A stretch of DNA of 64,000 nt from an uncultured Gammaproteobacteria bacterium (lineage in GTDB: Bacteria > Patescibacteriota > Patescibacteriia > UBA9934 > CAZDDW01), in contig CAZDDW010000004.1 of NCBI GenBank assembly GCA_964504365.1, forward strand, positions 14,214 to 78,213, given 5' to 3'. How positions within the stretch are numbered: position 1 is the first letter of the stretch; the number at the start of each line of letters is the position of its first letter. Made by a program: the position numbers and the translations under genes. Below, one piece after another: positions 7,859-42,244 of the stretch. The notes under the pieces were generated by a model that saw nothing but the letters and a program-made list of their open reading frames with translations, was not told where the DNA came from and made no database searches.

Positions 7859-7860
7859 TT

Positions 7861-8732: not shown

Positions 8733-8740
8733 AAGTAAAA

Positions 8741-20599: not shown

Positions 20600-21970
20600 C
20601 TATGCAGCGTACAAACGTTGTTTGATCAGTTCCAGATCATGTTGTAACTTTTCATCTTCAGTAAGAATGTTAGAAATTTTGTCGTAAGCATGCATGGCTG
20701 TTGTATGATCACGTCCACCAAGCTCCTGTCCGATCTGCGGATAAGAACTCTTCATTTCTTCACGCATGATATACATAATAATCTGTCGTGGAAAAGCCAG
20801 TCTTTTTTCTCGACTCTTGCTAAGCACCTCATCAATAGCAATGTCATAATATGCAGCCACGGTTTGTATCAGTTGTTTTGGGGTAACGTTCTTACGATTC
20901 CGTGATGGTTGGAAACTAGCCAACATTGGTTTTACTGTTTCAATTGTTGGATCAATATTTTTGAACTGATGGAAAGCAATGATTTTATTTAAGGCACCCT
21001 CAAGCTCTCGGATATTTGACTGAACAACCGTGGCCATGTGGTGCAGAATTTCTCTGTCTAATAAATAGCTTTTATCTCTACTTTTAGCCTCAAGAATAGC
21101 AATTCTTGTTTCAAAATCAGGGGTTCCAATGTCAGTCATCATGCCCCACTCAAAACGTGACAATAAACGATTCTCAAGTGCAGGAATAGCTTTTGGCGGA
21201 CGATCTGAGGAAAGAACAATTTGCTTGTTTTCTTGGTGCAGGGCATTAAAGGTATGAAAGAATTCTTCCTGTGTTCCCTCTTTTCCAGTAAGAAACTGAA
21301 TGTCATCAACTAAAAGAATGTCTACGTTTCGATAGACATCCTTAAATTCCTTGGCGTGTCCTGTGCGCACAGCGTGAATAAAATCATTAGTGAATTTTTC
21401 ACAGGTAACATACAAAACACGGGTATTTGGATTTTGTTTGACTCGCTGGTGTCCAATAGCTTGTAGTAGATGGGTTTTTCCAAGCCCTACCCCACCATAA
21501 ATAAAGAGAGGATTGTATACATCGCCTGGTTGAGCAGAAACAGCCTGGGCAGCAGCATGGGCCAATTCGTTTTGTTTTCCAACAACAAACGAACTAAAAA
21601 TGTATTTTGGATTTAAAGAGACATCTTCATTGTTTTTGGTTGATGTTCCTTCGTTATTATCAACAAAACTAACTGGTTCAAAGGTTTCTTCTTCACTTGG
21701 AATAACTTGCGGGGCAGATTGTCTAGTTTCAACACGATAGATTACGGCTTTGACAGGAGTGTTGGCTAGATTCTGTAAAGAAACAAGAATGTCTTTGTGA
21801 TATTTCTTTTCTAACCAGGCTTTGGTAAAAGTATTAGGGACACCGACGGCTATTTCACCACCGTCCAACGATACAATAAAAGTATTTTTAAACCAGGTAG
21901 TAAAATTTGCTTTGCTTAGCTTCAATTCAAGCTCTCCAAGAGCAGCTTGCCAAAGTTCGTCGGTGTTCAT
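20600..21970 (-). CDS. dnaA: chromosomal replication initiator protein DnaA
   Basis: Walker A GGVGLGKTHLL, AAA+ box, C-terminal DNA-binding domain ...ISNILTEDEKLQHDLELI; 456 aa. Confidence 0.95.
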   Translation of the reverse strand: MNTDELWQAALGELELKLSKANFTTWFKNTFIVSLDGGEIAVGVPNTFTKAWLEKKYHKDILVSLQNLANTPVKAVIYRVETRQSAPQVIPSEEETFEPVSFVDNNEGTSTKNNEDVSLNPKYIFSSFVVGKQNELAHAAAQAVSAQPGDVYNPLFIYGGVGLGKTHLLQAIGHQRVKQNPNTRVLYVTCEKFTNDFIHAVRTGHAKEFKDVYRNVDILLVDDIQFLTGKEGTQEEFFHTFNALHQENKQIVLSSDRPPKAIPALENRLLSRFEWGMMTDIGTPDFETRIAILEAKSRDKSYLLDREILHHMATVVQSNIRELEGALNKIIAFHQFKNIDPTIETVKPMLASFQPSRNRKNVTPKQLIQTVAAYYDIAIDEVLSKSREKRLAFPRQIIMYIMREEMKSSYPQIGQELGGRDHTTAMHAYDKISNILTEDEKLQHDLELIKQRLYAA

Positions 21971-22151
21971 AATATTTTTGTTTTAATTCATTTTTCTATC
22001 TCAGTCACTATATACTAAATATCCACATGTGGGCAAGTGGGTGGATAGTGGGAATTTAGGTTGATTTTTTGGGGATAGTGTGTGTATAATGGGGCTCATT
22101 ACCTGATGGGTATGGCCAATCACTTTCATAAGAGCTAAAATATAGACACCT
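21971..22151. promoter_or_regulatory. putative oriC / dnaA promoter region with convergent DnaA-box-like motifs
   Basis: atATCCACA (22019-22027) and gGGTGGATAg (rc cTATCCACC, 22041-22050), ggGGATAGtg (22071-22080) between divergent dnaA and rpmH. Confidence 0.55.
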
Positions 22152-22307
22152 ATGCCAAAGAGAACATATCAACCTAAGAAGAGACGCAGTGTAAAGGTGC
22201 ACGGATTTCGTAAAAGAATGTCGACTAAAAGTGGACAAAATGTCATTAAGAGTCGTCGTGCTAAAGGACGAAAAAAACTCACTGTTTCCTTAAAAGGTAA
22301 AAAATAA
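22152..22307 (+). CDS. rpmH: 50S ribosomal protein L34 (not in ORF track: 51 aa)
   Basis: translation [51 protein letters not shown] matches L34 consensus; immediately upstream of rnpA. Confidence 0.85.
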
Positions 22308-22318
22308 GCCCAGGAGCT

Positions 22319-22660
22319 ATGCTCCCTCGTGAAAATAGGCTAAAAAGAGATAAAGATTTCCAGGCCCTGTTCAAAAAAGGACAGGGCACTTTTGGTTCTG
22401 TTTGTGGGGCTAAATGGCAAAAAAATGGCTTAGATAAGGTTCGAATTGCCGTTGTGGTTGGAACCAAAGTGTCAAAGAAGGCCGTGGCTCGCAATCGGTT
22501 GCGTCGGCAGATTCGGGAGGTTATTAGGCTTAAACTAGACCAATTTAAGCCCGGCTATGATTTAGTGATAATTGTTAATAAGCAGGCCTTGGATAAAAAG
22601 CAAGAAGAACTAGCCAAAGAAACGCTAAAGTTACTTAAAAAGACCCCTGTTTTTAAGTAA
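22319..22660 (+). CDS. rnpA: ribonuclease P protein component
   Basis: MLPRENRLKRDKDFQALFKKG... basic 113-aa protein with RNR-like motif region, canonical position after rpmH. Confidence 0.9.
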   Translation: MLPRENRLKRDKDFQALFKKGQGTFGSVCGAKWQKNGLDKVRIAVVVGTKVSKKAVARNRLRRQIREVIRLKLDQFKPGYDLVIIVNKQALDKKQEELAKETLKLLKKTPVFK

Positions 22661-22661
22661 T

Positions 22662-22928
22662 ATGTTTAAGCTTATTCCCCGGTTAGGGGTGTTAATTGCC
22701 ATTAGGATTTATCAAAGGACAATATCTTTGGATCACGGATTTCCAAAACACCTGTTCCCTAACGGATATTGTCAGTTTCATCCAACTTGCTCAGAATACG
22801 GATATCAAGCGATTGATCAACATGGAATTATCAAAGGGGGCTGGTTAACTGCTTGGCGAGTAATTAGATGCAATCCCTGGTCTCACGGAGGAATTGATCA
22901 GGTGCCAAACAAAAAAACACGCCCGTAG
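22662..22928 (+). CDS. yidD: membrane protein insertion efficiency factor YidD
   Basis: conserved CxFxPTCSxYxxxAI and NPWxxGGxD motifs (CQFHPTCSEYGYQAI...RCNPWSHGGIDQVP). Confidence 0.85.
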   Translation: MFKLIPRLGVLIAIRIYQRTISLDHGFPKHLFPNGYCQFHPTCSEYGYQAIDQHGIIKGGWLTAWRVIRCNPWSHGGIDQVPNKKTRP

Positions 22929-22938
22929 GCGCGATTTT

Positions 22939-23046
22939 TTATTTTGTGCAGGTGCATTTGCACTCTTTGCAGTCTGAGCACTGAGTACAGTCACACTCAC
23001 CGTCTTTGCACTCAGGACAAACATCCTTACCTTCACAACATCCCAT
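22939..23046 (-). CDS. putative 35-aa cysteine-rich (metallothionein-like) peptide, unannotated small ORF
   Basis: ATG 18 nt downstream of yggU stop, same strand; translation MGCCEGKDVCPECKDGECDCTQCSDCKECKCTCTK (11 Cys/35 aa); followed by hairpin + T-tract shared with yidD. Confidence 0.4.
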   Translation of the reverse strand: MGCCEGKDVCPECKDGECDCTQCSDCKECKCTCTK

Positions 23047-23063
23047 AGAACAATTTTCAATTG

Positions 23064-23327
23064 TTAATTATCAATTTTTAAAATATCACGGACTTGGTCT
23101 TCGGGCAGGTCAATTTTTATTTGTTTGACTCGGCCGGTTAGGCCCCTGTTAATTTGAATCAACGTTTTGGCCACTCCAAGCTTTTTGGACAGAAAGTCGA
23201 TTATGGTTTTGTTGGCCCTTCCTTCTGTTGCTGGTGCAGCAATTCTCATTTTTAGATTAGTTTTATCAATCCACTTAACAATTTTATTCTGTTTGGCATT
23301 CGGTTGTACATGAACAGTTATTGTCAT
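23064..23327 (-). CDS. DUF167/YggU-family protein
   Basis: 87 aa; ...KIVKWIDKTNLKMRIAAPATEGRANKTIIDFLSKKLGV... matches UPF0235 (YggU) pattern. Confidence 0.7.
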   Translation of the reverse strand: MTITVHVQPNAKQNKIVKWIDKTNLKMRIAAPATEGRANKTIIDFLSKKLGVAKTLIQINRGLTGRVKQIKIDLPEDQVRDILKIDN

Positions 23328-24160
23328 ACACGGAGGCCTTTTAATGCCTTCAGGTCCTTGGTAATTTTCCCGGCGGCATGCGGGGTTTCCAGGATCATGT
23401 CAATGTTCTTTAATTTTGGATGTTTGACAATGGCCTTGAATCCTTTTCTACCAATTTTTCCTTTACCAATATTTTCGTGACGATCCTTGTGAGAACCAAG
23501 ATCAGACATTGAATCGTTGGCATGGATTACTACCAAGTGTTTGAGACCAACTATTTTAGCAAACTCTTTTAAAGTTTTATCAACCGAAGCTTTGTCACGC
23601 AGATCATATCCAGACGCAAAGGAGTGCTGGGTGTCCAGACAAACTCCAATTTCCTTGCCTCGCTTTGCGCCCTTAATAAAAGTTGCAATCTCTTCGAATG
23701 TATCGCCCATAACCATACCAGCGCCAGCAGAGTTTTCAATTAGGAGCTGAGTAGATCCAGAGTAGCCATTCATAATTTTGTTTAGACCCTCAATAACAAA
23801 AGCCTCGGCCTGCTCTTGGTTAACATCGCGAGCGCTGCCGATATGAAACATTAGGGCCTTGGCTCCAAGCAAACTGGCTCGTTCCAAGTCCTCACGAACC
23901 ACTCGGGCTGTAGAAGAACGAATCGATTTTTTTGAAGAGGCCAGATTTAAATAATATGGCGCGTGTACATAAACACGAGCCATATTATTTTTTTTCTTTT
24001 CTTGTTTAAATTTAGCCAAGATTTCATCAGTCAGCTTTGATGCCGGTCCGCCCTGTGGTGAACGAGTGAAGATTTGGAAAACCTCGCAACCAATCTCAGC
24101 CGCGTTAGCTGGGGCATTGAACACCCCACCAGCAATTGATACGTGAGCTCCAAATAACAT
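23324..24160 (-). CDS. nfo: endonuclease IV (AP endonuclease family 2)
   Basis: MLFGAHVSIAGG...; His/Asp/Glu metal-ligand pattern of the xylose-isomerase-like TIM barrel (HAPYYLNLAS, VIHANDS). Confidence 0.9.
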   Translation of the reverse strand: MLFGAHVSIAGGVFNAPANAAEIGCEVFQIFTRSPQGGPASKLTDEILAKFKQEKKKNNMARVYVHAPYYLNLASSKKSIRSSTARVVREDLERASLLGAKALMFHIGSARDVNQEQAEAFVIEGLNKIMNGYSGSTQLLIENSAGAGMVMGDTFEEIATFIKGAKRGKEIGVCLDTQHSFASGYDLRDKASVDKTLKEFAKIVGLKHLVVIHANDSMSDLGSHKDRHENIGKGKIGRKGFKAIVKHPKLKNIDMILETPHAAGKITKDLKALKGLRV

Positions 24161-24164
24161 GACT

Positions 24165-25454
24165 TTATTTTACCATGGTCTGTCGTAGAAGGTCGATTAC
24201 CTTTCGGTTTTTAAGCATTACCTCGATATATTCTCGGTTTGCAGGAGAGTAAATATTTTTCTTGGCCTCCTCGTCTTCGTACTGTGAGGCCATCTTGTCT
24301 AATTCAGCATCTACCTCATCTGAGCTAGCGGCAACTCCTTCATCTTTGGCAATAGCCCGTATGACCAAAGCTACTTTAATTCGCAGAAGTGCTTCAGGAG
24401 TGAAATCTAGACGCAGATCACCAAGTGTTTTATTAATTGATTTTAGATAATCGTCAAACACCCCACCTTGATTCTCGACAGTGTGTTCTAGTTCGTGAAC
24501 CATTTTATGAACCTCTTCGTCAACTAATGAATCAGAGATTTCTTCAAATGTTGTTTTACTAGCAATTGTGTCCAGCATGCTGCGTTCCTGTCGTACACGC
24601 TCCTTCTGTTCACCTTCCTTTTCCATGTTGGCCTTTAGCATGTCCTTCATGGTTGCCAAATCCTTCATTCCCAAAGACTTGGCAAAGTCATCATCCATGG
24701 TTGGGCTTTCTAGGCGGTAGATTTCTTGAAGGGTAATTTCAAACTCTACGTCCTGTCCAGCTAAATGTTTTTGATAATGTGTTTCTGGAAATTTTAAAGT
24801 GAAAGTTTTTTTGTCTCCTTCTTTAAGTCCAATAATCTCATCACAGAATCCAGGGATGTAATGGTCCTCACAAAGGAAAATGGCATTTCCCTGTGCCTGG
24901 CCACCTTCTACTGGTACCCCTTCTTTTTTCATGTTCATATCAATCATGGCCTTGTCTTCTTTGGTGGCAACATGGCCTTTTTCCTCACGGATTTCCTTGG
25001 TCTGCATTTTACCTAGTCCTTCCAAAGCCTGATCTAAATCTTTATCAGCCACCTCAACTTTTTTGGATTCAACAGTCAGTGTTTTCCAATCAGCAAGCTT
25101 TGTGATTTTTGGCATCAAGGCCACCTCAACTGTATATTCTAGATCATTATCCGGAGCCATTTTTTCAACTTTGATTGCTGGCTCACCTGCGGTTTCCAAC
25201 TTTTCATTAGTCACTGCCTCGATATAACTTTTGCGAACAATTCCGTCCAAGGCTGCTTCGTAAATTTTCATTTCGCCAACACGATTCTTAACAACATCAT
25301 AAGGGGCCTTTCCGGCACGAAATCCCTCGATTGAGCTTTGTTCAGATAGTTCTTGGGCGGCTCGTTCAAGCTCAGGTCGCATTTCTTCAACCGGAACAGT
25401 GATGGTTAGTTTAACCGTGTTTTTAGGTAAATTTTCAAGTTTTACTTCAGACAT
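24165..25454 (-). CDS. tig: trigger factor
   Basis: N-terminal ribosome-binding region with GFRAGKAPY (GFRxGxxP signature); central PPIase-like and C-terminal domains; 429 aa. Confidence 0.9.
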   Translation of the reverse strand: MSEVKLENLPKNTVKLTITVPVEEMRPELERAAQELSEQSSIEGFRAGKAPYDVVKNRVGEMKIYEAALDGIVRKSYIEAVTNEKLETAGEPAIKVEKMAPDNDLEYTVEVALMPKITKLADWKTLTVESKKVEVADKDLDQALEGLGKMQTKEIREEKGHVATKEDKAMIDMNMKKEGVPVEGGQAQGNAIFLCEDHYIPGFCDEIIGLKEGDKKTFTLKFPETHYQKHLAGQDVEFEITLQEIYRLESPTMDDDFAKSLGMKDLATMKDMLKANMEKEGEQKERVRQERSMLDTIASKTTFEEISDSLVDEEVHKMVHELEHTVENQGGVFDDYLKSINKTLGDLRLDFTPEALLRIKVALVIRAIAKDEGVAASSDEVDAELDKMASQYEDEEAKKNIYSPANREYIEVMLKNRKVIDLLRQTMVK

Positions 25455-25512
25455 AATAGGTTTAAAAAATTAGGTTATGGGCCGAGTTTAATGTAATTTT
25501 AGCAAGATGTCA
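25455..25512 (-). promoter_or_regulatory. promoter for tig: TTGACA-N17-TAAACT fused to upstream terminator T-tract
   Basis: minus strand ...tctttttaTTGACAtcttgctaaaattacatTAAACTcggcc...ATG. Confidence 0.5.
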
Positions 25513-25519
25513 ATAAAAA

Positions 25520-25545
25520 GACCCCTGATACAACAGTGTCAGGGG
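25520..25545 (-). terminator. intrinsic terminator after DGQHR gene (CCCCTGA/TCAGGGG stem + TCTTTTTATT)
   Basis: minus strand cccctcaCCCCTGAcactgttgtaTCAGGGGtctttttattgaca. Confidence 0.7.
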
Positions 25546-25559: not shown

Positions 25560-26732
25560 TCAGGGCACGAGAGAAGTGGCCTGCAAAGGCGGTTCTTCCG
25601 GCGTGGCCTGGTTGTCTTCCGGTTTGCTTTCGGGGTCGCCGGGGTAGGTCGCTTCCTCAGGGGCTGGTCGAGAAGAGACCTCGACCTTCCAGAGGTAGTC
25701 ATCCAGTCGCAGAGACAGTGTCCCTGGATTCACAGATGCTGGGTCAGCACGAGTGACCCACTGGAACTTCTTGCCCAAGCTAAGGACTCGCTCCATGTTT
25801 TCTCGGCTGTGATCACGTCCGATCATGCCTGAGAAACGCGGCTGTCGAGACAGCAGGACTAGCAACGTGTCGATTCCGAGGGGTCGGGCCAGCGGGTGTC
25901 CGTCTCGTGTCCAGAAGGCAGGCCAGACCGCAGCCGCGGCCACGAAGAAGTTGACGATGATCTCCACCTGCTCTTCGATCGAGTACCCATGCAAGGAGCT
26001 GGTCTTGCCAACCGCTTGCTTGATGTACTGGAACAAAGACATCAGGTTGTGCCTGTCTCTGGGAAGGCGTCCACGAGTTGCCTGGTCGAAGAAGATCTTG
26101 TTGAGCAGAGGGGAACGCGGGTCCCGGTTCAGCTCAAGAGCGGCCAGGTAGGCTGCTTTCTCAGCGCGATTCTTGAAGCGGTCCACACGGTGAGCCTGAG
26201 CCAGACGAAGTCGTGGGTCAAGCTTCTTGCGCTTGCCCTGCTGGCCGAAGATGGCGATCCGTTGCTTTACCGGCAGGTTCACTGTGGTGGTCACTGGAAA
26301 GGACCAACGACCACGCTGTTCACCATCGAGCATCTCACAGGCAGCCAGTCGATGCTGGCCGTCGTCCACGAGCATGCAGCAGGCGTCCATCAGTTTTTCC
26401 GGATCGTCCTCAACCATGCCGGTCAGGGTGTGGCGCACCTCGTCGTATTCCCAACTGTGAACATCGTCGCCAGAACGCACATCTCCAAGGATGGAATCGA
26501 GCATGACCCCGCCCTCTTCCTTTTCCATGTGCAAGGCAATGCCGATGGCGTGATTGTTGGTCAGAGCCCTGTTCACACCTTCCGGGTGTTCGCCAAAGCG
26601 CAGGACAACAGCGATCTTCATCAAGAGCTCAGCTGAGAGCACGAAGGTGTAAAGGACGGTCTCCTTCTGCATGAACCGAGTAACGTTTGGAATTTCCACT
26701 TTTTGAAGGGCCATGTTTCCTCCCAACAGCAC
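25560..26732 (-). CDS. DGQHR-motif (DndB-like) protein, GC-rich island 2
   Basis: motif LVDDGQHRLAA (the DGQHR signature of DndB/DpdB-like ParB-fold proteins); about 58% GC DNA; 390 aa with acidic/Pro-rich C-terminal tail. Confidence 0.7.
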   Translation of the reverse strand: MLLGGNMALQKVEIPNVTRFMQKETVLYTFVLSAELLMKIAVVLRFGEHPEGVNRALTNNHAIGIALHMEKEEGGVMLDSILGDVRSGDDVHSWEYDEVRHTLTGMVEDDPEKLMDACCMLVDDGQHRLAACEMLDGEQRGRWSFPVTTTVNLPVKQRIAIFGQQGKRKKLDPRLRLAQAHRVDRFKNRAEKAAYLAALELNRDPRSPLLNKIFFDQATRGRLPRDRHNLMSLFQYIKQAVGKTSSLHGYSIEEQVEIIVNFFVAAAAVWPAFWTRDGHPLARPLGIDTLLVLLSRQPRFSGMIGRDHSRENMERVLSLGKKFQWVTRADPASVNPGTLSLRLDDYLWKVEVSSRPAPEEATYPGDPESKPEDNQATPEEPPLQATSLVP

Positions 26733-26790
26733 CGGGCATCACCAGCGTGCCCACACTGAAGAGAATTAACTTAACAGAATAAGCTTATCC

Positions 26791-26830
26791 TGTCAAGTAA
26801 CTGTATAAAAAAAGACCCGAGATTCGGGTC
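26791..26830 (-). terminator. terminator hairpin GACCCGA/TCGGGTC + T7, followed by TTGACA-N17-TAAGTT promoter for the DGQHR gene
   Basis: minus strand ccacttGACCCGAatcTCGGGTCtttttttatacagttacTTGACAggataagcttattctgtTAAGTT. Confidence 0.55.
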
Positions 26831-27203
26831 AAGTGGAATTATCCTGTTGATCAAGGAACTGACGAAGACTGGCTTCATCAGAATGGTCTTGACGTAGCCG
26901 GTCAAGGAAGGAGCCCAGAGTATCGCCTTGCTTGGCGGTCTGTTGGTAAACTTCCAGTATACGAGGCAGGTGACGCTGCAAATCTCCAAGCGGCAGAAGC
27001 TTCTTGGGCTCTGGTTTGCCAACATCCAAAGCTCTTCGCACTTTGGCTGCGAGCCGCTTTTTTATCTCAGGCAGGCGGTCAAGGATTTCCAAAGTACTTT
27101 TGTCGTCCTTGTCCAGGAATTGGCAAAAGGTTCCAGGCTTTCCCGCATCTACCCAGTCTTCGAAAGATTGTTCGATGCGGGGTATGATCAGGTCAGCTAA
27201 CAA
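26829..27203 (-). CDS. hypothetical protein (124 aa), island 2
   Basis: GC-rich ORF, 11 nt downstream of previous ORF stop; no recognisable domain. Confidence 0.4.
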   Translation of the reverse strand: MLADLIIPRIEQSFEDWVDAGKPGTFCQFLDKDDKSTLEILDRLPEIKKRLAAKVRRALDVGKPEPKKLLPLGDLQRHLPRILEVYQQTAKQGDTLGSFLDRLRQDHSDEASLRQFLDQQDNST

Positions 27204-27213
27204 ATTCCACCTC

Positions 27214-27822
27214 TCAGGAGTCCAGCCAGGCCCTGAGCTCGGCTTCGGTTGGGTGGTCTGTGGCTATACGACTGAGGTAATTGTCGAAGCTTTCGTCAGG
27301 AGTTGCCTCTTCGGTGAACCTTGTTGTGATTTGTCCCAGATACTGCTGAAGCACACTGCTTGGAAGTTGTTCTGCTGCTGCCGGCTTTTCCGCAGGCATA
27401 CCACTTGAAGCAACGGTTCCAGGGCTGAGAATACCATCGACCTGCAGCTCCAGGCCGCTACTGTCGGTTTCTTTGATTCGGCCGGTAAGACCATGCTCAT
27501 CGAAACCAAGCACCGTTGACACCCGACCTGCTCCACGTATCTCCTGGTCATCGAACTTGATCCCCTTGATCAAGACACAGCCGCCACTGACCCCTTGGTC
27601 AAGTGCAACAACCAAGAACAGGAACGAGTTTCGCGAACGAGCTACGTACACCTCACCAGGTCGCATTTCCAGCACTGGTTTGTAGATACCAGTGTCGTTA
27701 TCGCTTCGGCGATAAGGAACGGTCTGGGTAATGGTCACCATTCGCCCGTCAGGCAAGGAAAGGGTCAGTCCACGCAAGGTTGTTACCAACTCTTGTACGT
27801 CTTGGGTAAAGATCGAGGTCAT
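27214..27822 (-). CDS. hypothetical protein (202 aa), island 2
   Basis: GC-rich ORF with own TTGACA-N17-TATGGT promoter downstream of helicase terminator; no recognisable domain. Confidence 0.45.
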   Translation of the reverse strand: MTSIFTQDVQELVTTLRGLTLSLPDGRMVTITQTVPYRRSDNDTGIYKPVLEMRPGEVYVARSRNSFLFLVVALDQGVSGGCVLIKGIKFDDQEIRGAGRVSTVLGFDEHGLTGRIKETDSSGLELQVDGILSPGTVASSGMPAEKPAAAEQLPSSVLQQYLGQITTRFTEEATPDESFDNYLSRIATDHPTEAELRAWLDS

Positions 27823-27925
27823 GACTTCATCTCCTTTATGAAGGTAATTACCATATCAGACAACAAAGAGGCTGTCAAACCATATCGTTTGTGTTTACTT
27901 ATTAAAAAAGAGGCACTCAAGTGCC

Positions 27926-30900
27926 TCAAGTTGTTAGAGCAATTGCCCCACGGCTGGCCAGCTTTTGCAAAGTGCGCCAATCATGAGCAAAAAGGTCTAG
28001 TGCAGCCTGGTCTGGCGTCAAAGGTCCTGTGTCCGGACGAGCACCCCATCGTTGGAATTCTCTAAGGATGGTCCTTTTAACTGCCTCGTTATCCAAGACA
28101 GTGCCAGATCGACTGGCTAGCGGGTTGACCACTTCGAAGTCGTTATAGACAACTGTGCTTTGGTTACCAGGCTCAGGTCCTTTTCCTTTGCCGTTACGAA
28201 CGTTGATGTTTCGGGCAAGCTCAAAGGTAAAACGGAAAGCCTCATGGTCTGTAAACCGCGGCTTGTTTCCGTTTAGCGAGAACAGAATGGACCAGAAAGC
28301 AAACTTGGGCTTTGTTTTGTGGCCCTCTCCCTTTGGTACGATCAGACCAGAAAGAGGTAGTACATCACAACCCTCGCTGCGTAAGGCACTTACCCAACAC
28401 TCATAAAGCGTTTCATCAAGAGCCTGTCGGTTAAAGGTCAACCAGATCAAGCCGTATGATTCAGTAACGCGGACGAGTTCACGTAGAATCCGAATGCGCT
28501 CTGGCTCTTGTTGGTCTGCTTCCAGATTGGTCCAATCAATAGCCAAAGAACTTACAGTCAATCGGAACCTGTCTGTCCAATCACTGGGTAGCTGAGAAAG
28601 GCGTCCAACCTCAGCATTAGTGCCTTGGTGTGGGGAAAGGGTTCTGCCAAGATCAACGATCGTTGGGTTGATGTCAATCCCGTAGATCGGTTGGTCAAGG
28701 TAGCGTTCCATGGTCAATGGGCCACAGCCAGCATCAAAGATCAGTTCTGGGCGATCCAGGATCCCTGCTGGGATCAATCCACTGGTTAGCGACCGGGTCA
28801 TGAAACGGGCTATGTGCCCGGAAGCTCCAAAGTCCTGAACTTGGACAAAGCTTCTGGCAAATATCTCCGCATTGGTCCGTATGCCAAACTCGGTTGACAG
28901 TCGACGAATGACGCCGTCCTCACCAGCACCGCGCATGTCAGAGGCGATGAGGTTGACATGGTCGGTTGGAGAGCGGGTTAGGCGCTTTAGTCGAGTACTG
29001 TTGGGAGTAGTGTATTCGTTCCACTCCTCTTCAGTCGGTGGAACACGAGCCCTGAAACGAACCAAGTGTTCCCACTTGCGCTTGACCAGCTCATAGCGAC
29101 TCTCATCAGCAGTATCAACAATGTTGTCGTCTCCGACAAGCACTAGTGACAAGTACTCCACAGGCACAGTCAGACCTTCTCTCCAGAAACGACCAAGGAA
29201 CTGTTTCCAAGGCAACCATCCCTGGGCATAGGCGATCACCTTTACCCCTTGGACAGTTGGGTCGTTTCTGACCAGGACAGACAGGTTGATGCTGTCCGGA
29301 CAGGTCTTCATAGAAACCAGCAGGATCCTGGCACGTGGGTCAGTTCGCCAGCGAGCGATCAAAGAATCTCTCGCGTGACTACCAACGCCAACACTGCCAT
29401 CGAGCAACAAAACAGCTTCGTCGCCGTACCACTCCTTCAAGAGCTTGCCAACCCACACCCCGTCATCATCACCTTTGTAGGGCTGGGTTACCCCCTGGAC
29501 ATAAACGCCGGTAGCAACCACCACCTTATGGTTGTGGAGGCATTCGTCTAGCTGTCTTTTTAGCCAGACAAGCTTGGTTGACAGTCGCCAGTCGCTGAAA
29601 CGCTCAGCCATCTCGTCAGGCCAGTCGTAGGCAGTGTTTCCAGTCAGCACGTGCGGCATGTCCGCTGCATGAAGCAGGTGACGCACCTTGGCACTGGCAT
29701 CGATTCCAATTCCGTTACCATTTCCATTCTCTTGCTCAAGGTCAGGTTCGTGATCCTGAACAAAGCGGTACAACTCAGCATGATCCGGATTCATTTCAAG
29801 TGGCACTGGCCCGAACAGGTCCTCCCACGGCTGTGGGTTGATTGTTGGCAGGTCGCGCACCTCTTGAAGTTCTATGTCCAGGATACAGGTCCCGAAGATG
29901 GCTCGGAGCAAGCGGGGGCTGGCAAACACACCAGAACTGACAAACCGTTCTGGGTCTGGGAACAGGTCTGGTCTCAAGATCGTGGCCAAAGCAGCGCACT
30001 CAACAGGAGAATTCTCCCAAGGAGTTACTGAAAGGGCCAAAACCTTTTTCAGACGTGCCTCAGCACCCTTAATGATCGTCAGACAAGCAAGGGCTCGTTG
30101 TGCCGCGCTTTTTCCAAGGACATTTTTTCCGTATTGACACTCATCCCAAATCACACCATCGAAAGCCAGTTTGCTAAGAGCACTGACAATTTCAGGCCTG
30201 GTAAGGTTTGAATAGCCAACAACGATAAATCTGGCATTCCTTGGAATAAAGGCAACATCACGAATGCCTCGAATTACATGTACCACACCAGGCCGCCTAG
30301 CCCAGGGGAAGTAAATCTTTAGCTCGTTTTCCCAGTTGTCTCGAGCGCCAGGCGCACAAAAGACCAGGGTCTGTTGACAGCCAGCCTGAAGAACGTCAAG
30401 GGCCGCGTAACTGGTTTTGTACGTACCAGTATCTCCAATGTTGAGAACTCGCGACTCGTCTTTGGAACGAGCCAGCCACCAGCGCACATGAAGAGCTGGG
30501 AACATCCGGCTGTTGATCGTTTCGATCGTGTCCGGATAGGTCGTGGTCAAAAGGGCTTCGATGCGTTCGTGAGCGATTTGCCACACCTTACGTTCGTAGT
30601 CGTTGTTTGCTGCGGCCCGCTCTTCTCTTACGAAGTCATGGCCCAAATCAACGTCACGACTGAACCAGTAAAGCAACTCGCGTATACGACAATCAACATC
30701 CAGATCCAGAACCTCGGTTGGAATTCCTTTGATGATTTCCGGGTCGATCACTACCTTGGCGCCTGAATCGGTGCGGTTGGTGTTGAGTGGTCGTACCGTA
30801 ACCACACCCAGATTGGCCCGAAGTTTCATGTCTGCTTGGAGCTTGAGCACCAGGCGCGTCATCCATTCCACGTCTCCGTAGAAGAATTCAGGACAAACAC

Positions 30901-31147
30901 GGACAATCGCGTGAGCCAGGGCTTCGGGGAATGCTTCGAACCGTTCCCAGATAAAACGAAGTAAATCGTTTTTGTTGATTTGCTCAGCAAACAACGACGA
31001 CTTGTTTTCTACAACCTCAGCCAAACACTGATCAAGGTCCTTATCAGTCAGGTCACCACGTTGGTGGAGGAAGCGCAGGAATTCGTACTTCTTCTCGTTC
31101 TCTGGCATTTTGGCTAGCAGCGATACTATTTGTTGATGACTAAGCAT
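27926..31147 (-). CDS. SNF2-family helicase/ATPase fused to C-terminal class-I SAM-dependent methyltransferase domain, island 2
   Basis: helicase motifs IGDTGTYKT (I), VIWDECQYGKN (II), ALSVTPWEN (III), LLVSMKTCPDSINL and QGWLPWKQFLGRFWREG (V/VI); MTase motif I LIFDAGCGPL and IYGIDINP; start set at ATG 31147 (GGAGAGG SD) since the ORF-track GTG at 31240 lies inside the terminator/-35 element. Confidence 0.7.
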   Translation of the reverse strand: MLSHQQIVSLLAKMPENEKKYEFLRFLHQRGDLTDKDLDQCLAEVVENKSSLFAEQINKNDLLRFIWERFEAFPEALAHAIVRVCPEFFYGDVEWMTRLVLKLQADMKLRANLGVVTVRPLNTNRTDSGAKVVIDPEIIKGIPTEVLDLDVDCRIRELLYWFSRDVDLGHDFVREERAAANNDYERKVWQIAHERIEALLTTTYPDTIETINSRMFPALHVRWWLARSKDESRVLNIGDTGTYKTSYAALDVLQAGCQQTLVFCAPGARDNWENELKIYFPWARRPGVVHVIRGIRDVAFIPRNARFIVVGYSNLTRPEIVSALSKLAFDGVIWDECQYGKNVLGKSAAQRALACLTIIKGAEARLKKVLALSVTPWENSPVECAALATILRPDLFPDPERFVSSGVFASPRLLRAIFGTCILDIELQEVRDLPTINPQPWEDLFGPVPLEMNPDHAELYRFVQDHEPDLEQENGNGNGIGIDASAKVRHLLHAADMPHVLTGNTAYDWPDEMAERFSDWRLSTKLVWLKRQLDECLHNHKVVVATGVYVQGVTQPYKGDDDGVWVGKLLKEWYGDEAVLLLDGSVGVGSHARDSLIARWRTDPRARILLVSMKTCPDSINLSVLVRNDPTVQGVKVIAYAQGWLPWKQFLGRFWREGLTVPVEYLSLVLVGDDNIVDTADESRYELVKRKWEHLVRFRARVPPTEEEWNEYTTPNSTRLKRLTRSPTDHVNLIASDMRGAGEDGVIRRLSTEFGIRTNAEIFARSFVQVQDFGASGHIARFMTRSLTSGLIPAGILDRPELIFDAGCGPLTMERYLDQPIYGIDINPTIVDLGRTLSPHQGTNAEVGRLSQLPSDWTDRFRLTVSSLAIDWTNLEADQQEPERIRILRELVRVTESYGLIWLTFNRQALDETLYECWVSALRSEGCDVLPLSGLIVPKGEGHKTKPKFAFWSILFSLNGNKPRFTDHEAFRFTFELARNINVRNGKGKGPEPGNQSTVVYNDFEVVNPLASRSGTVLDNEAVKRTILREFQRWGARPDTGPLTPDQAALDLFAHDWRTLQKLASRGAIALTT

Positions 31148-31224
31148 CAAACCTCTCCGTTCCTTGTATTGCACAAGAAAATATTGAAAAGACCAAGGGA
31201 CCTTTTTAACAGATATAAGCCAAA

Positions 31225-31258
31225 TTGTCAATAAAAACACCCATCCAAGTGGATGGGT
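31225..31258 (-). terminator. intrinsic terminator after sigma-factor gene (ACCCATCC/GGATGGGT + GTTTTTATTGACAA)
   Basis: minus strand ctctaaACCCATCCacttGGATGGGTgtttttattgacaa. Confidence 0.65.
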
Positions 31259-32527
31259 TTAGAGTTCTGTTTCTTGGTTGACAATGGTGTGCAGGTCGCT
31301 GAACCACTGGCCTGGTGGCGCAACCTGATCATCGAGCTCGATTATTGCTTGGCCTCCACCATTGCAATAACTGAATCGGCAGAATTGAGCAGCTCCTGTC
31401 ACCAGTATGGTTTTTTCTTCTTTGTCTATCTTATCAGAGAACAGTAGTCCACAAGCAACTAGTTTCTGATAAAAAGCTTGACCCAGTTGATCCCTGATAC
31501 CAGATACACCATATTCGGCATCGGCTACATGCAATAGTGTTGCGGCTTGAGCGAGGCTGACAGAAATCTCCCAGAACACGGGTGCAGACCCGTTATTTTC
31601 TAGAGGCCGCCTGTCAACGTCTTGTATATCATCCAACTCATCTAGGCTGTTGGCACCTAAGTCAACCAACGCCTGTTTCATTTTATCTTTGGCTCTGATT
31701 TCGAGCTGTCTTATTCTTTCGCGACTGATACCTAGAGATTTTCCAAGTACTCGTAGCGACACTTTTTGCTCTAGGTAGCGGTGCTCAATAATGAAGCGTT
31801 CTCTTTCACTCAAGACGCCCAAAGCCAGTTCGGCTAATGCACGTTGATGCTCATTTTCCCGTGTAGAATCAACAGAATCTTCAGGTGAAGGGGTGTCTTC
31901 ATCTTCCAGCAGATCGATGAACATTACCTCAGAGTCATCCGAGGCTTTGTTGTGCAACGAAAGATCCTGGCCACTTAGACGCATGTCCATTTCGCGCACT
32001 ACTTTTTCATCTACACCGAGCTCGACGGCTATCAAAGACAGGCGCTCGTCTCCTGTTAGATCCAGATTTTTGTACTCTACCTTAGCCCGGGCTCGTCCGA
32101 GCCCACTGAAAACCTTTCTCTGTTTTTGGGTGGTTCCCATGCGGACTTGAGATCGGCTTCTGAGAATGAATTCCTTTATTTCGGCCTTCATCCAGTACTT
32201 GGCGTAGCCCAAGAACCTGACACCGCGGTCTGGATCAAAGCGCGTAATGGCTCGACATATACCAATCAAGGCCTGTTGAAGCAGTTCTTCCGCAGGAACA
32301 TGCCTGTTTGCATAACGCTTTGATAATTTAACAGCGTATTTGATATTTGCATCAACCAGGGCTGAGACAGCCTCTTTGTCTCCTGATTTGGCCAGGGCAA
32401 CCAGATCAAGTTCTTCATTTCGTTTAAGAATACGTACGGTTGGATTGCTAAGGTGCTTTGTTATGATCGGGGACAGGTCTGGTCTTTTGACATAACCCAA
32501 TCTATTCTCCCTTTCAGGTCGGAGCAT
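31259..32527 (-). CDS. sigma-70 family RNA polymerase sigma factor, RpoH (sigma-32)-like, with about 130-aa C-terminal extension of unknown function
   Basis: region 2 FLGYAKYWMKAEIKEFILRSR; RpoH-box-like MGTTQKQRKVFSGLGRA; region 4.2 HTH LGISRERIRQLEIRAKDKM; GC-rich. Confidence 0.75.
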   Translation of the reverse strand: MLRPERENRLGYVKRPDLSPIITKHLSNPTVRILKRNEELDLVALAKSGDKEAVSALVDANIKYAVKLSKRYANRHVPAEELLQQALIGICRAITRFDPDRGVRFLGYAKYWMKAEIKEFILRSRSQVRMGTTQKQRKVFSGLGRARAKVEYKNLDLTGDERLSLIAVELGVDEKVVREMDMRLSGQDLSLHNKASDDSEVMFIDLLEDEDTPSPEDSVDSTRENEHQRALAELALGVLSERERFIIEHRYLEQKVSLRVLGKSLGISRERIRQLEIRAKDKMKQALVDLGANSLDELDDIQDVDRRPLENNGSAPVFWEISVSLAQAATLLHVADAEYGVSGIRDQLGQAFYQKLVACGLLFSDKIDKEEKTILVTGAAQFCRFSYCNGGGQAIIELDDQVAPPGQWFSDLHTIVNQETEL

Positions 32528-32544
32528 AACTTGCTATATCGTTT

Positions 32545-32590
32545 TTGTCAATCAAAAAGCGGGGTCAAGGGACCCCGCCTATTCTATATT
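32545..32590 (-). terminator. intrinsic terminator after hppA (GCGGGGTC/GACCCCGC + CTTTTTGATTGACA)
   Basis: minus strand aggcGGGGTCccttGACCCCgctttttgattgacaaaaac. Confidence 0.65.
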
Positions 32591-38701: not shown

Positions 38702-39805
38702 TTAACTGGTCAGAAGACAGCGGAACGGCTCGTCTTCTCCCAGGCGTGGTGGGTGTATGGCCGCTCCTTCACTAGACAGGACCCAGCGAGCACCCATTCG
38801 ATGTGAGACCCCCATGCTGGTGTATGCTGGCCGTTGGCGTTGGTGTACCTCAAGCATGGGCAGGAAGTTGAAGATCTCAATGTTGATCTGGGCGCTGGTC
38901 TTCTTGTCGCGCAACCGGTCATGGACACTGTCCCAGATCACTGTGGGAATACGCAACTGCCAGGCCCCGAGCAGGCGACGCTCTCTACGGTCCATTCCCT
39001 TGAGAACATCTTTCTGCTCTCCGGGGAACAGGTAGGCCATTTCTCCGGTCCGGCGACCGTTCATTGGTTTTTTCCCTGGTGCGTATGTCTCGATGAACGA
39101 GCCAGGAACCAAGTTCAGCTCCCTGGTGTGCTGCCTGTTGGCTGCCACGTGGAGCGGAATACCGCCAGGCAGGTCGAACTTGGCCAGGATGTCAGCCCCA
39201 TGACTGGAAAGCAGGACATCATCAGCACCAACGCTACCCGGACGGTTGTAGTCGGATCTGAAACGCTGAAGGATCGTTGGGTAGTACTTGAGGAGGAATT
39301 CCGTTTGTGCGTACAACCACGGCACGCGTTCAAGAATTTCGGGCTTGTCCGGGGTTATACCCTCTTCTCTGTACTCGATATGGTCGAAGAGAACACGGGT
39401 TTCTTCGACCCGCATGATCCACTCAAGCAGGATCCAGGTGTAGTCCGCGTTGGGTATGACTATAGTCAGAGGTGTGGTCTGTTCGATCGGCACGGTTTCG
39501 CCGGTGAACAAGAAGTTCGGTTCCCGTAGGGAGCGCAAGAGCTCTTCGACCGCCGTCTGCTGCCCATCTCGATGCAGCTTGGCCAGCATGGTCAACAGAA
39601 CCCGGCCGTCACTTACCAGTTTGTCCCAGCGTCGCAAAGCTTCGCTGGGCGAGCCGGTTTGCTCAAGCAAGAACTTGTACAAACCAACCAGACCTCTGGC
39701 ACGGCCCCGCAACCGGGCAAACACCTGGTTCCCAACCAGCTGTTCGCGCAACGCGGCGATTTGGGTTTCTCTTAAAAGGGCTTCGTTGTTCTTGTCTTCA
39801 GGCAC
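38702..39805 (-). CDS. hypothetical protein (367 aa), GC-rich island 3
   Basis: long ORF in about 57% GC DNA; no recognisable domain. Confidence 0.45.
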   Translation of the reverse strand: MPEDKNNEALLRETQIAALREQLVGNQVFARLRGRARGLVGLYKFLLEQTGSPSEALRRWDKLVSDGRVLLTMLAKLHRDGQQTAVEELLRSLREPNFLFTGETVPIEQTTPLTIVIPNADYTWILLEWIMRVEETRVLFDHIEYREEGITPDKPEILERVPWLYAQTEFLLKYYPTILQRFRSDYNRPGSVGADDVLLSSHGADILAKFDLPGGIPLHVAANRQHTRELNLVPGSFIETYAPGKKPMNGRRTGEMAYLFPGEQKDVLKGMDRRERRLLGAWQLRIPTVIWDSVHDRLRDKKTSAQINIEIFNFLPMLEVHQRQRPAYTSMGVSHRMGARWVLSSEGAAIHPPRLGEDEPFRCLLTS

Positions 39806-39918
39806 TGCTCTTCTCCTTGAGCCATCTGAAGCAGTATCTCCTGGGAGGTACCAAGGTTCGGTCAGCGACCGGTTGTCTCCTGGGAGGCAACGTATCGATC
39901 TTGCCGGAAAATGTTAGA

Positions 39919-39959
39919 TTTGTCAATAAAAAGACCCGACAACAAGTGTCGGGCGAGGT
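39919..39959 (-). terminator. terminator/-35 cassette copy A (CCCGACA/TGTCGGG hairpin + TCTTTTTATTGACAA)
   Basis: ttgtcaataaaaagacccgacaacaagtgtcgggcgaggtt; 40/41 identical to 41166-41206. Confidence 0.7.
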
Positions 39960-39966
39960 TGTTCGA

Positions 39967-41034
39967 TCAGCCGGTGGCAGCTGCGGGCTTGCGTCGGATT
40001 TTGATCAGACGGCTTCGATCCAGTCCGTGAAGTTCCGGGTCGGTCTCTCCGCGGTTGAACCGCTCTAGCACGAGCACCAGCTCGTCGTGTAGCCTTTTGT
40101 CGCGCTGAGATGTCTTGAACTCCGGGCCGAGATAGGCGACCAATTCCTTGATCACGGATTGCAGGAAGCTGGCCCGGTCCACTTCCTTGCCCCACTCAGT
40201 GTCTGCGTGTTCGGTCTGTTTGGTGAACAGGTCGACCAGGTCGCCGTGGGGTCGTAGTCGGACGATCTCTTCGAGCAGATCAAGTCCGTTGGAAGAGATG
40301 CCACCTTCGCCCAAGATCTCCCGGGCGCCACTGTCAGAGACCAGCCAGAACTGCATCCGCATCTGGTCCATGCTCACTTCACGATCGCGAGTGATCTCCA
40401 GATGCCAGCCCATGTTGCCGAGCTCTCGTCCCAACGAGAGTTTTTGTTCCCAGCGTTGGAATGGACAAGCCGGGAAGCGAGAGAGTTCGGTTGTTCCTTC
40501 GGGCGTATTCTCGATCACGTCCAGGCACATCAGGAGCTGTTCGTTCTCTTTCATGCGCACGAGCATATAGGTTTGGTGTCTTAGAACCCAGACCTCTTTC
40601 ACTCGGACGATAGCCAGGATCAGGCGAGCCACCAAGGCGAGACCGATCAGAGCACAGACAAGGATCTGTCGGTACTGATCTACGTTCGGTCCTAGGGTCA
40701 ACGGTTCCGTGATGGCATAAAAACACCAAGCAAGACCAAAAGCCAGAAGTGCGAAGGCCACCACCATGCCAATAAAGATCGTTAGCATGAAGAGTACGAC
40801 GCACATCCACTGGATCCAGAAGAGGAACCCCTTGACCTTTTTGGAAAAGGCCTGGATCCACTTTGGGGAATCCGAGGTGTCCCAGTCGATCCTCTTGATC
40901 GGGTTGGCTCGGCGAAGCCCGCGGACAAGCTTGACCGCACCTCGCCAAAGGGTTTGCTCGAAGCCGAAAGCGATCCAGAAGACCAGTCGCTCCGGCAGGA
41001 GGGAGATGAACTCCCAGGAAAAGAACCACCGCAT
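39967..41034 (-). CDS. hypothetical membrane protein (355 aa; 2-3 TM + cytoplasmic domain), GC-rich island 3
   Basis: ORF with own TTGACA-N17-TAATCT promoter; TM segments FLFWIQWMCVVLFMLTIFIGMVVAFALLAFGLAW; no recognisable domain. Confidence 0.45.
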   Translation of the reverse strand: MRWFFSWEFISLLPERLVFWIAFGFEQTLWRGAVKLVRGLRRANPIKRIDWDTSDSPKWIQAFSKKVKGFLFWIQWMCVVLFMLTIFIGMVVAFALLAFGLAWCFYAITEPLTLGPNVDQYRQILVCALIGLALVARLILAIVRVKEVWVLRHQTYMLVRMKENEQLLMCLDVIENTPEGTTELSRFPACPFQRWEQKLSLGRELGNMGWHLEITRDREVSMDQMRMQFWLVSDSGAREILGEGGISSNGLDLLEEIVRLRPHGDLVDLFTKQTEHADTEWGKEVDRASFLQSVIKELVAYLGPEFKTSQRDKRLHDELVLVLERFNRGETDPELHGLDRSRLIKIRRKPAAATG

Positions 41035-41165
41035 GATTTACCTCCAAGGCCACGCAGTCTCGCCACCAAGCACCCGTTCGGGCATCACCAACACGAACTA
41101 CCGTGCGGATCTAGCTTAGACTTGACTGAAATCATGGAGGGTTAGATTATCATCGTGCCCACGGC

Positions 41166-41206
41166 TTGTCAATAAAAAGACCCGACAACAAGTGTCGGGT
41201 GAGGTG
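41166..41206 (-). terminator. terminator/-35 cassette copy B, then -10 TAATCT 17 nt downstream of TTGACA
   Basis: ttgtcaataaaaagacccgacaacaagtgtcgggtgaggtg; minus strand ...tctttttaTTGACAagccgtgggcacgatgaTAATCT. Confidence 0.7.
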
Positions 41207-42244
41207 TTAGGACCAGTGCCGCTCTGGTACGTAGAACTGCATCAGTTCCTCGATGATTTTTGGGTCACTATCGATGATTTCCAGGCCACGCTGACTTGGA
41301 AATTCCTGGTGGGCTTTTTGGAAGGCCTGGATGACCCGTTCGGGTGTGGGTTCACCACCAGGCCAGCATAGTTGGTTGTGGACTCTGAAAAGCCGGAACT
41401 CAGGGTGCTCGCCCCGGTCGACATGCACGTAGTGGCCAGCCGCCAATCGTTTCAGCTCCTCGTTGGTTGCTCCAGGGATGTGCCAGTAGAGGTTGCTTGA
41501 CCAGTAGGCTGCTTGTCCCAGCCTGCCGTGGGCCCACTCAGGCACCGGGTCTCCCCCTGCGAATAGTGGTTTGAATCCATGAAAGCGCAGGAACCATTCG
41601 ATTGGCGAGGGCCAGTACCGAAGGGCAGGGCCAGTACCACTGTTTGGGATTGGGGTGAAATCATTCCAGTAAGGGGTGAAACGGAAACTGTGGATTGCTG
41701 CCGCACCAAGGACCAGGCTGGTCGGGTAGGCGTCATGGGCAATGCTCCACAAAATCAGTCGCGGTGGATGTTTCTGGTCAAGGGTGTTACGCACCGGCTG
41801 GTTGAGAAGAGCTCTCCCAGCTCTGGTTTGGTCGTGTGGAAGGGGCAGGGTGATGACGATCCGCCCTTCTACGATTTCCAAGAGGTCATTGTCTCTGAGG
41901 CGTCCAATCCATTTGCGGAACATGTCCAGCTGAGGGTGTTCTCCGATTGGGCACGATGCTGATTCCCGAATCCAGGTATCCGGATCGAGTTGAAGGATGT
42001 CGTTGAGCACGATCTGAAACCCAGTCACCTTGTCCGGGCAAACGTGAATGACTCGGCGCAGTCCGGCAAGCCAGTCAGCAAACACGGTCGTGTCACCGGC
42101 CTCAGCCCTCGGGACCACTTGGTTGTTCCACATGTCATTGAACAGCTTGTTGAGGTGGTCAAGGCCGCGCTCGGCAGCGCGCATGATTTTACGATCGAAA
42201 CTACGTAGATTACTTCGATCCCATTTGTCACTTTGTCTACTCAT
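41207..42244 (-). CDS. hypothetical protein (345 aa), GC-rich island 3
   Basis: ORF in about 57% GC DNA, Trp/His-rich; no recognisable domain. Confidence 0.45.
   Translation of the reverse strand: MSRQSDKWDRSNLRSFDRKIMRAAERGLDHLNKLFNDMWNNQVVPRAEAGDTTVFADWLAGLRRVIHVCPDKVTGFQIVLNDILQLDPDTWIRESASCPIGEHPQLDMFRKWIGRLRDNDLLEIVEGRIVITLPLPHDQTRAGRALLNQPVRNTLDQKHPPRLILWSIAHDAYPTSLVLGAAAIHSFRFTPYWNDFTPIPNSGTGPALRYWPSPIEWFLRFHGFKPLFAGGDPVPEWAHGRLGQAAYWSSNLYWHIPGATNEELKRLAAGHYVHVDRGEHPEFRLFRVHNQLCWPGGEPTPERVIQAFQKAHQEFPSQRGLEIIDSDPKIIEELMQFYVPERHWS

Follow-up and report, generated by a model that had tools for sequence, protein, structure and literature searches.

The Sigma Factor Gene and Its Transcription Unit

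The DNA considered here is a stretch of 64,000 nucleotides from contig CAZDDW010000004.1 of assembly GCA_964504365.1 (positions 14,214 to 78,213, forward strand), referred to below as the window. On its minus strand lies a sigma factor gene whose product joins an RpoH-type sigma module to a C-terminal tail of about 130 residues. The open reading frame (ORF) at 31259..32527 (-) was verified and gives 422 aa when read from its in-frame ATG at 32527. Public gene callers report both this form (P0243) and one of 413 aa (P0001/P0244). A TTG at 32500 is most likely the true start, because it is preceded at 6 nt by the Shine-Dalgarno sequence AAGGGAG (32507..32513, -), and because the ATG at 32527 falls within the -10 element of the promoter TTGACA-17-TATGCT (32523..32551, -). 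Based on the ORF list, the public gene calls and this geometry, the gene is placed at 31259..32500 (-), with a TTG start, 413 codons and a stop at 31259-31261.

The promoter, of sigma-A type, was identified by a promoter and terminator scan and in the sequence itself, and lies directly past the terminator hairpin of hppA (32557-32580). At the other end of the gene, the scan and the sequence reveal an intrinsic terminator, ACCCATCC-ACTT-GGATGGGT followed by a T run (31239..31258, -), and directly 3' of it stands the TTGACA -35 box of the next gene, which encodes an SNF2-like helicase/methyltransferase (SNF2/MTase). With its own predicted sigma-A-type promoter and predicted terminators on both sides, the sigma gene is shown to form a transcription unit of its own. 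The gene is known from a single population of Candidatus Uhrbacteria and is identical in at least three assemblies. Two independent contigs from other samples (L001 and L002) are 100% identical to the window over hppA, the sigma gene and the SNF2/MTase gene. An assembly chimera was ruled out, as the junctions are the same in both.

An Intact but Divergent RpoH-Type Module

Residues ~20-285 make up an intact sigma-70-family protein which is closest to RpoH. Region 2, which binds the RNA polymerase core and recognises the -10 element, lies at residues 57-125 (32153..32359, -) and matches Pfam PF04542 (Sigma70_r2) with an E-value of 5e-13 and 49 bits against a cut-off of 24; it is modelled with a predicted local distance difference test (pLDDT) score of 86-97. 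Region 4 (residues 235-284; 31676..31825, -) matches PF04545 (Sigma70_r4) with an E-value of 7e-12 and 45.1 bits against a cut-off of 24.1. It includes the 4.2 helix-turn-helix, which recognises the -35 element, and retains the invariant S/E/R/R/Q/E residues. The Pfam match to region 3 is weak. The general model TIGR02937 (90.2 bits, cut-off 42.9) likewise places the protein in the sigma-70 family. Among NCBIfam models those for RpoH were the best matches by about 90 bits, with NF005143, TIGR02392 and NF005693 scoring 204.6, 204.3 and 202.2 bits and the next sigma classes at most 113 (RpoS, 113). None of the three, however, reaches its curated cut-off (241, 323.1 and 315 bits, respectively).

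Comparison with solved structures gave the same family. The top solved relative by sequence is E. coli sigma-32 (8hkc_E, 133.8 bits), to which query residues 28-278 align with chain residues 32-282, that is, through to the end of sigma-32. An AlphaFold2 (AF2) model built with 46 homologues has a pLDDT of 86-97 across most of the sigma part, and a Foldseek search with this model returned sigma-32 as the best match, followed by sigma-S and SigA among the top matches (E 1e-11 to 1e-8). Alignment to E. coli sigma-32 also located an RpoH-box-like segment at the place of the RpoH box, which has the pattern Q(R/K)(K/R)LFFNLR between regions 2.4 and 3.1. The segment is QRKVFSGLG (32096..32122, -), which lies within the GTTQKQR clade signature described below. 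It is degenerate, with five of nine residues identical to the E. coli box QRKLFFNLR, the second F being replaced by S and the final R by G. RpoH homologues share 49 columns with a conservation of 90% or more; the window protein retains 41 of these, and most of the changes are conservative. These alignments show a sigma module of regions 1.2, 2, 3 and 4 that is intact but divergent. As for the RpoH family in the strict sense, the protein stays outside it by score, by length (~280-300 aa in the family) and by inheritance within the host lineage.

The C-Terminal Tail

About 130 residues extend past the point where sigma-32 and every homologue stop. The other 119 homologues listed are 270-316 aa long, compared with 413 aa for the window protein. 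The alignment with sigma-32 stops just ahead of an acidic linker (ANSLDELDDIQDVDRRPLENNGSAP; 31580..31657, -), which is predicted to be disordered (pLDDT 42-46, without regular secondary structure). The linker is followed by an orphan domain of ~105 aa (31262..31579, -). In an exhaustive HMMER (phmmer) search against 1.84 billion representatives no credible homologue of the tail was found; apart from the protein itself, the search returned only P0121 and P0122, which are giant repeat proteins. Both were rejected, their scores being sums of 8-9 weak matches to 40-residue repeats and judged spurious. Likewise the tail matched nothing in Pfam at E-values up to 10, in PDB sequences or in PHROGs, no paralogue was found in the window or the fetched loci, and a scan of genomes with the sigma protein's own peptides gave no relative. 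An earlier reading of this DNA from its letters alone (the sequence-only reading) had described an RpoH-like sigma factor with an RpoH-box-like segment and some 130 C-terminal residues lacking a sigma-factor counterpart. All of this is borne out; for the tail the absence extends beyond sigma factors to other proteins.

The tail is genuine coding sequence, because the annotated frame alone scores positive, its codon usage matches that of the sigma domain and it has 130 stop-free codons. In a six-frame coding score the annotated frame reached +0.078, while the other five ranged from -0.19 to -0.43. GC content at third codon positions (GC3) and the codon log-ratio are 0.42 and 0.079 in the tail, against 0.45 and 0.082 in the sigma domain, and the probability of 130 stop-free codons arising by chance was estimated at ~0.002.

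The fold of the tail can be described with low confidence. Modelled by itself, the tail has a pLDDT of 41.6; in the full-length model, built with an alignment, it reaches 56-68, with the last 40 residues below 50. Two independent AF2 runs agree on three helices, then a hairpin and then a final helix. The structure prediction suggested by the sequence-only reading has yielded a consistent secondary structure at low confidence, and a Foldseek search with the tail model was uninformative (best E = 1.0). A winged-helix look of residues ~335-375 was an impression without tool support and was dropped.

A sceptical account holds that the tail is functionless evolutionary debris, left by loss of a stop codon or by fusion to a gene fragment at an insertion joint, and that the sigma factor itself is perhaps decaying. 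The tail is an orphan from one population with low fold confidence, the gene sits at a rearrangement joint where a gene of ~620 aa, present in relatives, was lost (see below), and purifying selection is not demonstrable from sequences that are all identical. Against this, the stop-free codons have host-like usage and a coding score that is positive in this frame alone, the sigma module is fully intact and the three helices came out of both independent runs. The tail also has no detectable similarity to the displaced family. Derivation from the ~620-aa gene was tried and rejected, with an hhalign probability of 0.2% and no match by hmmsearch or tblastn. We regard debris as unlikely.

Host, Homologues and Base Composition

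The host was placed by its DnaA, encoded 10 kb from the sigma gene. This protein shares 84% identity with a DnaA of Candidatus Uhrbacteria and 79% with that of a Patescibacteria chromosome of 1.0 Mb (OZ246408.1), and many further matches from Uhrbacteria and Patescibacteria range from 68 to 90%. The window also encodes a T4SS_pilin (PF18895) protein at 4733-5365 (+). This family is common in bacteria of the Candidate Phyla Radiation (CPR), and its presence is consistent with the assignment to Patescibacteria.

The sigma protein has a very different distribution. In a search of 5.8e9 proteins an identical protein from the same population was followed by a drop to 46% identity, and no Patescibacteria names appear among the 120 sigma matches listed. 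A degenerate DNA pattern for the signature GTTQKQR..[FY]S.LGRA, run against 185,579 species genomes, retrieved 10 loci and none from Patescibacteria. These belong to one Myxococcota metagenome-assembled genome (MAG) and nine MAGs labelled "uncultured Rickettsiales", with a GC content of 0.65-0.72. Their proteins are 291-312 aa long, lack the C-terminal tail and are 42-47% identical to the window sigma factor; two exceptions in length (328 and 402 aa) are ORFs merely running on upstream of the likely start. The GTTQKQR signature is present in homologues P0002-P0004 and in loci L010-L019. The contig of P0004 has a GC content of 0.68 and carries cytochrome c and mevalonate-pathway genes. As a separate observation, the label 'uncultured Rickettsiales bacterium' on the nine contigs L011-L019 (GC 0.65-0.72) looks doubtful, and one of the genomes so labelled, CAZITQ01, has two copies of the Myxococcota-like RpoH subclade.

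At the syntenic site the sigma gene is absent from all seven relatives examined. The complete relative OZ246408.1 runs from M23 peptidase through RNase HII, H+-PPase (hppA) and a 210-aa membrane protein to tig and on to dnaA, with neither the sigma gene nor GC-rich genes at the hppA-tig site.

Base composition gives a different picture. The sigma gene has a GC content of 0.470 and a GC3 of 0.442, compared with a GC3 of 0.317-0.475 for core genes and 0.496-0.678 for its four neighbours. Synonymous codon usage was expressed as a log-likelihood ratio of the core set against the GC-rich set, and the sigma gene scored 0.081, core genes 0.10-0.32 and the four neighbours -0.18 to +0.03. Its composition is at the edge of the core range and unlike that of the neighbours. 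The earlier claim of a GC-rich gene resembling the rest of an island is therefore not upheld, and the quantitative codon comparison, which had been named there as part of a refutation, puts it just under the core genes and above the neighbours. What had been called foreign-looking proves so in one sense only: the distribution of homologues supports it, by the sequences searched, and the base composition does not.

The same composition could suggest a heat-shock sigma factor that belongs to the lineage itself and was inherited vertically, a true RpoH that is merely very divergent, as many CPR proteins are. Codon usage and GC content at the edge of the core range are compatible with such an origin, as are the host-type promoter, Shine-Dalgarno sequence and terminator and the fact that RpoH is the best-matching family. 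It is opposed by the lack of any orthologue among the Patescibacteria proteins searched, including those of OZ246408.1 despite its DnaA identity, by a best sigma match anywhere of 46%, by the seven syntenic sites without the gene, by scores under the equivalog and subfamily cut-offs and by the degenerate RpoH box. Vertical inheritance is therefore very unlikely.

Phages and plasmids were also considered as carriers, the sigma factor then belonging to an integrated mobile element. Phage sigma factors exist, and the protein matches phrog_351 with 147 bits; the site, too, varies between relatives. The best viral relative is just 38% identical, no viral match reaches into the tail and no IMG/VR contig carries the sigma gene plus tail. 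Moreover, no integrase, tRNA or meaningful flanking repeat was found at the sigma gene, and the adjoining genes are chromosomal genes that the lineage conserves. This origin appears highly improbable.

The Neighbouring Cluster and the Displaced Gene

Downstream of the sigma gene, and outside its transcription unit, lies a cluster of four genes (25560..31147, -), delineated by profile matches and by syntenic orthologues in five relatives (L100, L101, L103, L104 and L105). The first encodes the SNF2/MTase protein (27926-31147, -). Next come two genes of 202 aa (27214-27822, -) and 124 aa (26829-27203, -) and a gene for a DGQHR-domain protein resembling DndB and DpdB (25560-26732, -), which matches TIGR03187 with 76.8 bits against a cut-off of 58.85. 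Weak matches within the cluster are to DpdE, phrog_62 and Methyltransf_11. A protein search with the SNF2/MTase protein found 36 full-length homologues at 38-53% identity, and all but one of the named sources are labelled Uhrbacteria or Patescibacteria; a metagenome scan with the same protein gave no match.

In the five relatives the interval between hppA and tig holds an orphan gene of ~600-660 aa, the SNF2/MTase gene for a helicase-methyltransferase fusion (~1050-1075 aa), genes of ~200 and ~124 aa and the DGQHR gene. In every genome examined the cluster has a higher GC3 than the genes around it (in L100, 0.61 for the SNF2 gene and 0.29 for the PPase gene). Judged by sequence identity it is fast-evolving, at 38-53% where DnaA is 68-90% identical. 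The GC-rich "island" is thus a cluster conserved in the lineage rather than recently imported, because the same hppA-tig slot is occupied in several Uhrbacteria. This does not fit the mobile or defence island of the sequence-only reading. In addition, PADLOC recognised no known defence system in the cluster, the helicase giving only marginal matches (DpdE, E 0.003; PDC-M27C, E 0.009) and the DGQHR domain being detected through TIGR03187 alone.

The orphan gene of ~600-660 aa (~620 aa for short) stands directly upstream of SNF2/MTase in the five relatives, at L105:456-2330, L100:8072-9874, L101:4439-6418, L103:8001-9830 and L104:84-2000 (alignment A2), and in the window the sigma gene stands there instead. 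In this family a conserved N-terminal part of ~370 aa is followed by a variable acidic middle, then by a PEPEP-rich linker and, at the C-terminus, a short helix. Searches of PDB and PADLOC yielded nothing credible for the family, and Pfam gave two chance-level matches, each to a single member. The idea that it is a known regulator was dropped on these grounds. The sigma and ~620-aa proteins are unrelated (hhalign probability 0.2%), and no homologue of the ~620-aa gene was found anywhere in the 64 kb. The sigma gene shares the strand of the ~620-aa gene and has a similar gap to SNF2/MTase (112 bp, compared with 115-167 bp in the relatives). By this synteny, the sigma gene has replaced the gene that heads the conserved cluster in relatives.

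The sigma gene and the cluster are within ~10 kb of dnaA, and the replication-origin region at 19205-25454 holds dnaN, dnaA, rnpA and their neighbours, an AP endonuclease gene and tig. The minimum of the cumulative GC skew lies further on, near 34-35 kb.

Relation of the Sigma Factor to the Cluster

The position at the head of the cluster raises the possibility that the sigma factor is a dedicated regulator of the adjacent SNF2/MTase-DGQHR genes, a defence-like or DNA-modification-like set, having replaced the ~620-aa gene and switching the cluster on when its C-terminal domain senses a signal. The gene occupies the exact slot and strand of the ~620-aa gene in five relatives with a comparable gap, which is suggestive. 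There is a precedent for a sigma factor within a defence system in MzaA (NCBIfam NF041931 and PADLOC), and the tail could be a sensor domain.

The expression signals point the other way. The terminator at 31239-31258 separates the sigma gene from the cluster, and past it the SNF2/MTase gene has a separate promoter, TTGACA-17-TAAAAA. Upstream of every cluster gene stands the hairpin-plus-TTGACA module that also precedes core genes, tig and hppA among them. The promoter layout of SNF2/MTase and a leader motif, TCG(C/T)TCTTT(C/T)(A/C)A, recur in relatives which lack this sigma factor, and the motif does not occur in the leader of the sigma gene itself. In the relatives it is found just 3' of the -10 element of the SNF2/MTase and ~620-aa promoters (L103:7963-7974 and 9934-9945; L104:2074-2085; L105:2410-2421), and in the window it appears as TGGTCTTTTCAATAT in the SNF2/MTase leader (31181-31195, -). 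Promoters of sigma-32 type are not enriched in the window. A scan with the consensus CTTGAAA-N13-15-CCCCATNT found two near-matches where 1.2 are expected, and the E. coli-type and alpha-proteobacterial versions were both at chance. No chaperone gene was identified among those window genes that were annotated.

The evidence, as far as sequence signals allow, speaks against the sigma factor driving the neighbouring cluster, and the autonomous island expression once envisaged finds no support. The codon usage of the sigma gene is also unlike that of the cluster, the match to MzaA reflects no more than general sigma-70 similarity (55-76 bits, with the cut-off at 800), and a swap of one regulator for another has no basis, as no function is assigned to the ~620-aa gene. 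We therefore consider a dedicated regulator of the cluster rather unlikely. Quite unlikely, too, is a more specific form in which the sigma factor would have functionally replaced the ~620-aa gene and the orphan domain would be a sensor or auto-inhibitory module linking a sigma switch to a signal, for instance DNA damage or infection by a phage.

Two side observations concern these signals. A recurring terminator-promoter module, a GC-rich hairpin followed directly by TTTTTATTGACA, is found upstream of core and GC-rich genes alike; examples on the minus strand are at 32523-32580, 31202-31258, 25485-25540, 41140-41200 and 39900-39960. The copies that precede 39967-41034 and 38702-39805 are near-identical (CCCGACACTTGTTGTCGGGTCTTTTTATTGACAA). 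Further, a sequence near-identical to the leader motif, GGATCTTTTCAATAT, is present at 11430-11444 (-), upstream of an unrelated GC-rich orphan gene of 856 aa (8782-11352). The likeness of TGGTCTTTTCAATAT and GGATCTTTTCAATAT could reflect a shared operator or chance (~0.1 expected).

Proposed Origin and Role

The reading we favour, and hold to be moderately likely, is that this is an accessory RpoH-type sigma factor in a Candidatus Uhrbacteria genome, probably acquired horizontally from outside CPR. The sigma gene would have entered the genome near oriC, at the variable slot between hppA and tig, taking the position that relatives give to the unrelated ~620-aa first gene of the cluster. Its product would bind the host RNA polymerase core and direct it to a small set of promoters other than those of sigma-A. 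The tail, an in-frame fusion of the acidic disordered linker and the orphan domain of ~105 residues, might act as a regulatory module on its own sigma factor, through auto-inhibition or binding of a partner. This last step is put forward with low confidence, by analogy with the extensions of extracytoplasmic function (ECF) sigma factors. Of the two alternatives that the sequence-only reading had offered for the gene, an autonomous island regulator and a captured regulator, the second comes closer.

Several points weigh against horizontal acquisition and a regulatory tail. The near host-like composition (GC 0.47, compared with 0.65-0.72 in the nearest relatives) and the host-type expression signals imply that the transfer, if any, was old or came from an unsampled donor, and an old transfer would fit awkwardly with the absence of the gene from relatives. 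The closest of these (DnaA 88-90%) are known from contigs too short to judge whether the sigma gene is present. In a neighbour-joining tree the GTTQKQR clade itself is recovered in 100/100 bootstraps, while the window protein is a long branch beside it in only 53/100. The phylogeny of the sigma domain, one of the checks proposed earlier, thus gives it a position beside a Myxococcota-like clade with low support. The promoter scan of the window gave no target promoter or regulon. Finally, the tail has no homologues, no sequence variation for a test of selection and a low-confidence fold, and its suggested regulatory role would rest on analogy only.

Other GC-Rich Patches in the Window

Three more patches of GC-rich orphan genes were noted, at 7184-11352, 38702-42244 and 52069-53316 (all -). 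Their GC3 is 0.62-0.84, compared with ~0.39 for the genome, and no Pfam domain was found in them. The most extreme patch (52069-53316, GC3 0.84) adjoins a tRNA-Arg gene (53527-53603) and a gene for a XerC/D-type integrase (53639-54595), and may be an integrated element.

Comparison with Known Systems

The closest known system is RpoH/sigma-32, the group 3 heat-shock sigma factor of Proteobacteria. The window sigma factor has the same order of regions (1.2, 2, 3 and 4), aligns with sigma-32 end to end over 251 residues, has RpoH as its best family match by sequence and by fold and carries an RpoH-box-like segment at the equivalent position. It differs in its identity of ~31-46%, in scores below the curated cut-offs, in the degenerate box, in the tail of ~130 residues and in its CPR host, and no heat-shock regulon or sigma-32-type promoter was identified for it in the 64-kb window. 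Within the family, the GTTQKQR subclade from high-GC, Myxococcota-like MAGs (P0002-P0004 and L010-L019) shares the signature with it and comprises the highest-scoring homologues, at 42-47% identity. Unlike the window protein, its members lack the tail and belong to non-CPR genomes with a GC content of 0.65-0.72.

MzaA, from the MZA anti-phage system, is likewise a sigma-70-family protein with extra sequence that is encoded beside defence-type genes. The match to it is to the generic sigma part only (NF041931, 75.9 bits against a cut-off of 800; PADLOC, 54.9 bits). In MzaA the sigma part is at the C-terminus of a protein of ~700 aa, and no other MZA components are present in the window.

Genomes of CPR bacteria (Patescibacteria) are small and are thought to be poor in transcription regulators. 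An accessory RpoH-family sigma factor without a counterpart in relatives would indicate that even these genomes can gain new sigma factors. The SNF2-methyltransferase/DGQHR cluster of Uhrbacteria may be the more general finding. To our knowledge, a fused extra domain has not been described for any sigma factor of RpoH type (group 3), and a literature search turned up no such case. If the replacement and sensor reading were true, this would be the first member of the RpoH family to have a regulatory domain fused to it, as well as a rare alternative sigma factor in CPR.

For the tail, the C-terminal extensions of ECF sigma factors appear to be the best functional analogy. In ECF41, ECF42 and ECF238/CorE a domain fused at the C-terminus of the sigma factor does the work of a separate anti-sigma factor and modulates sigma activity (PMC8103513). 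Those proteins belong to group 4 and have regions 2 and 4 only, whereas the window sigma factor is of RpoH type, with regions 1.2 and 3 as well. Their extensions are recognisable SnoaL-like, TPR or Cys-rich domains, none of which the tail matches in Pfam at the E-values searched. If the tail does regulate activity, the principle of a fused domain in place of an anti-sigma factor would extend beyond the ECF group.

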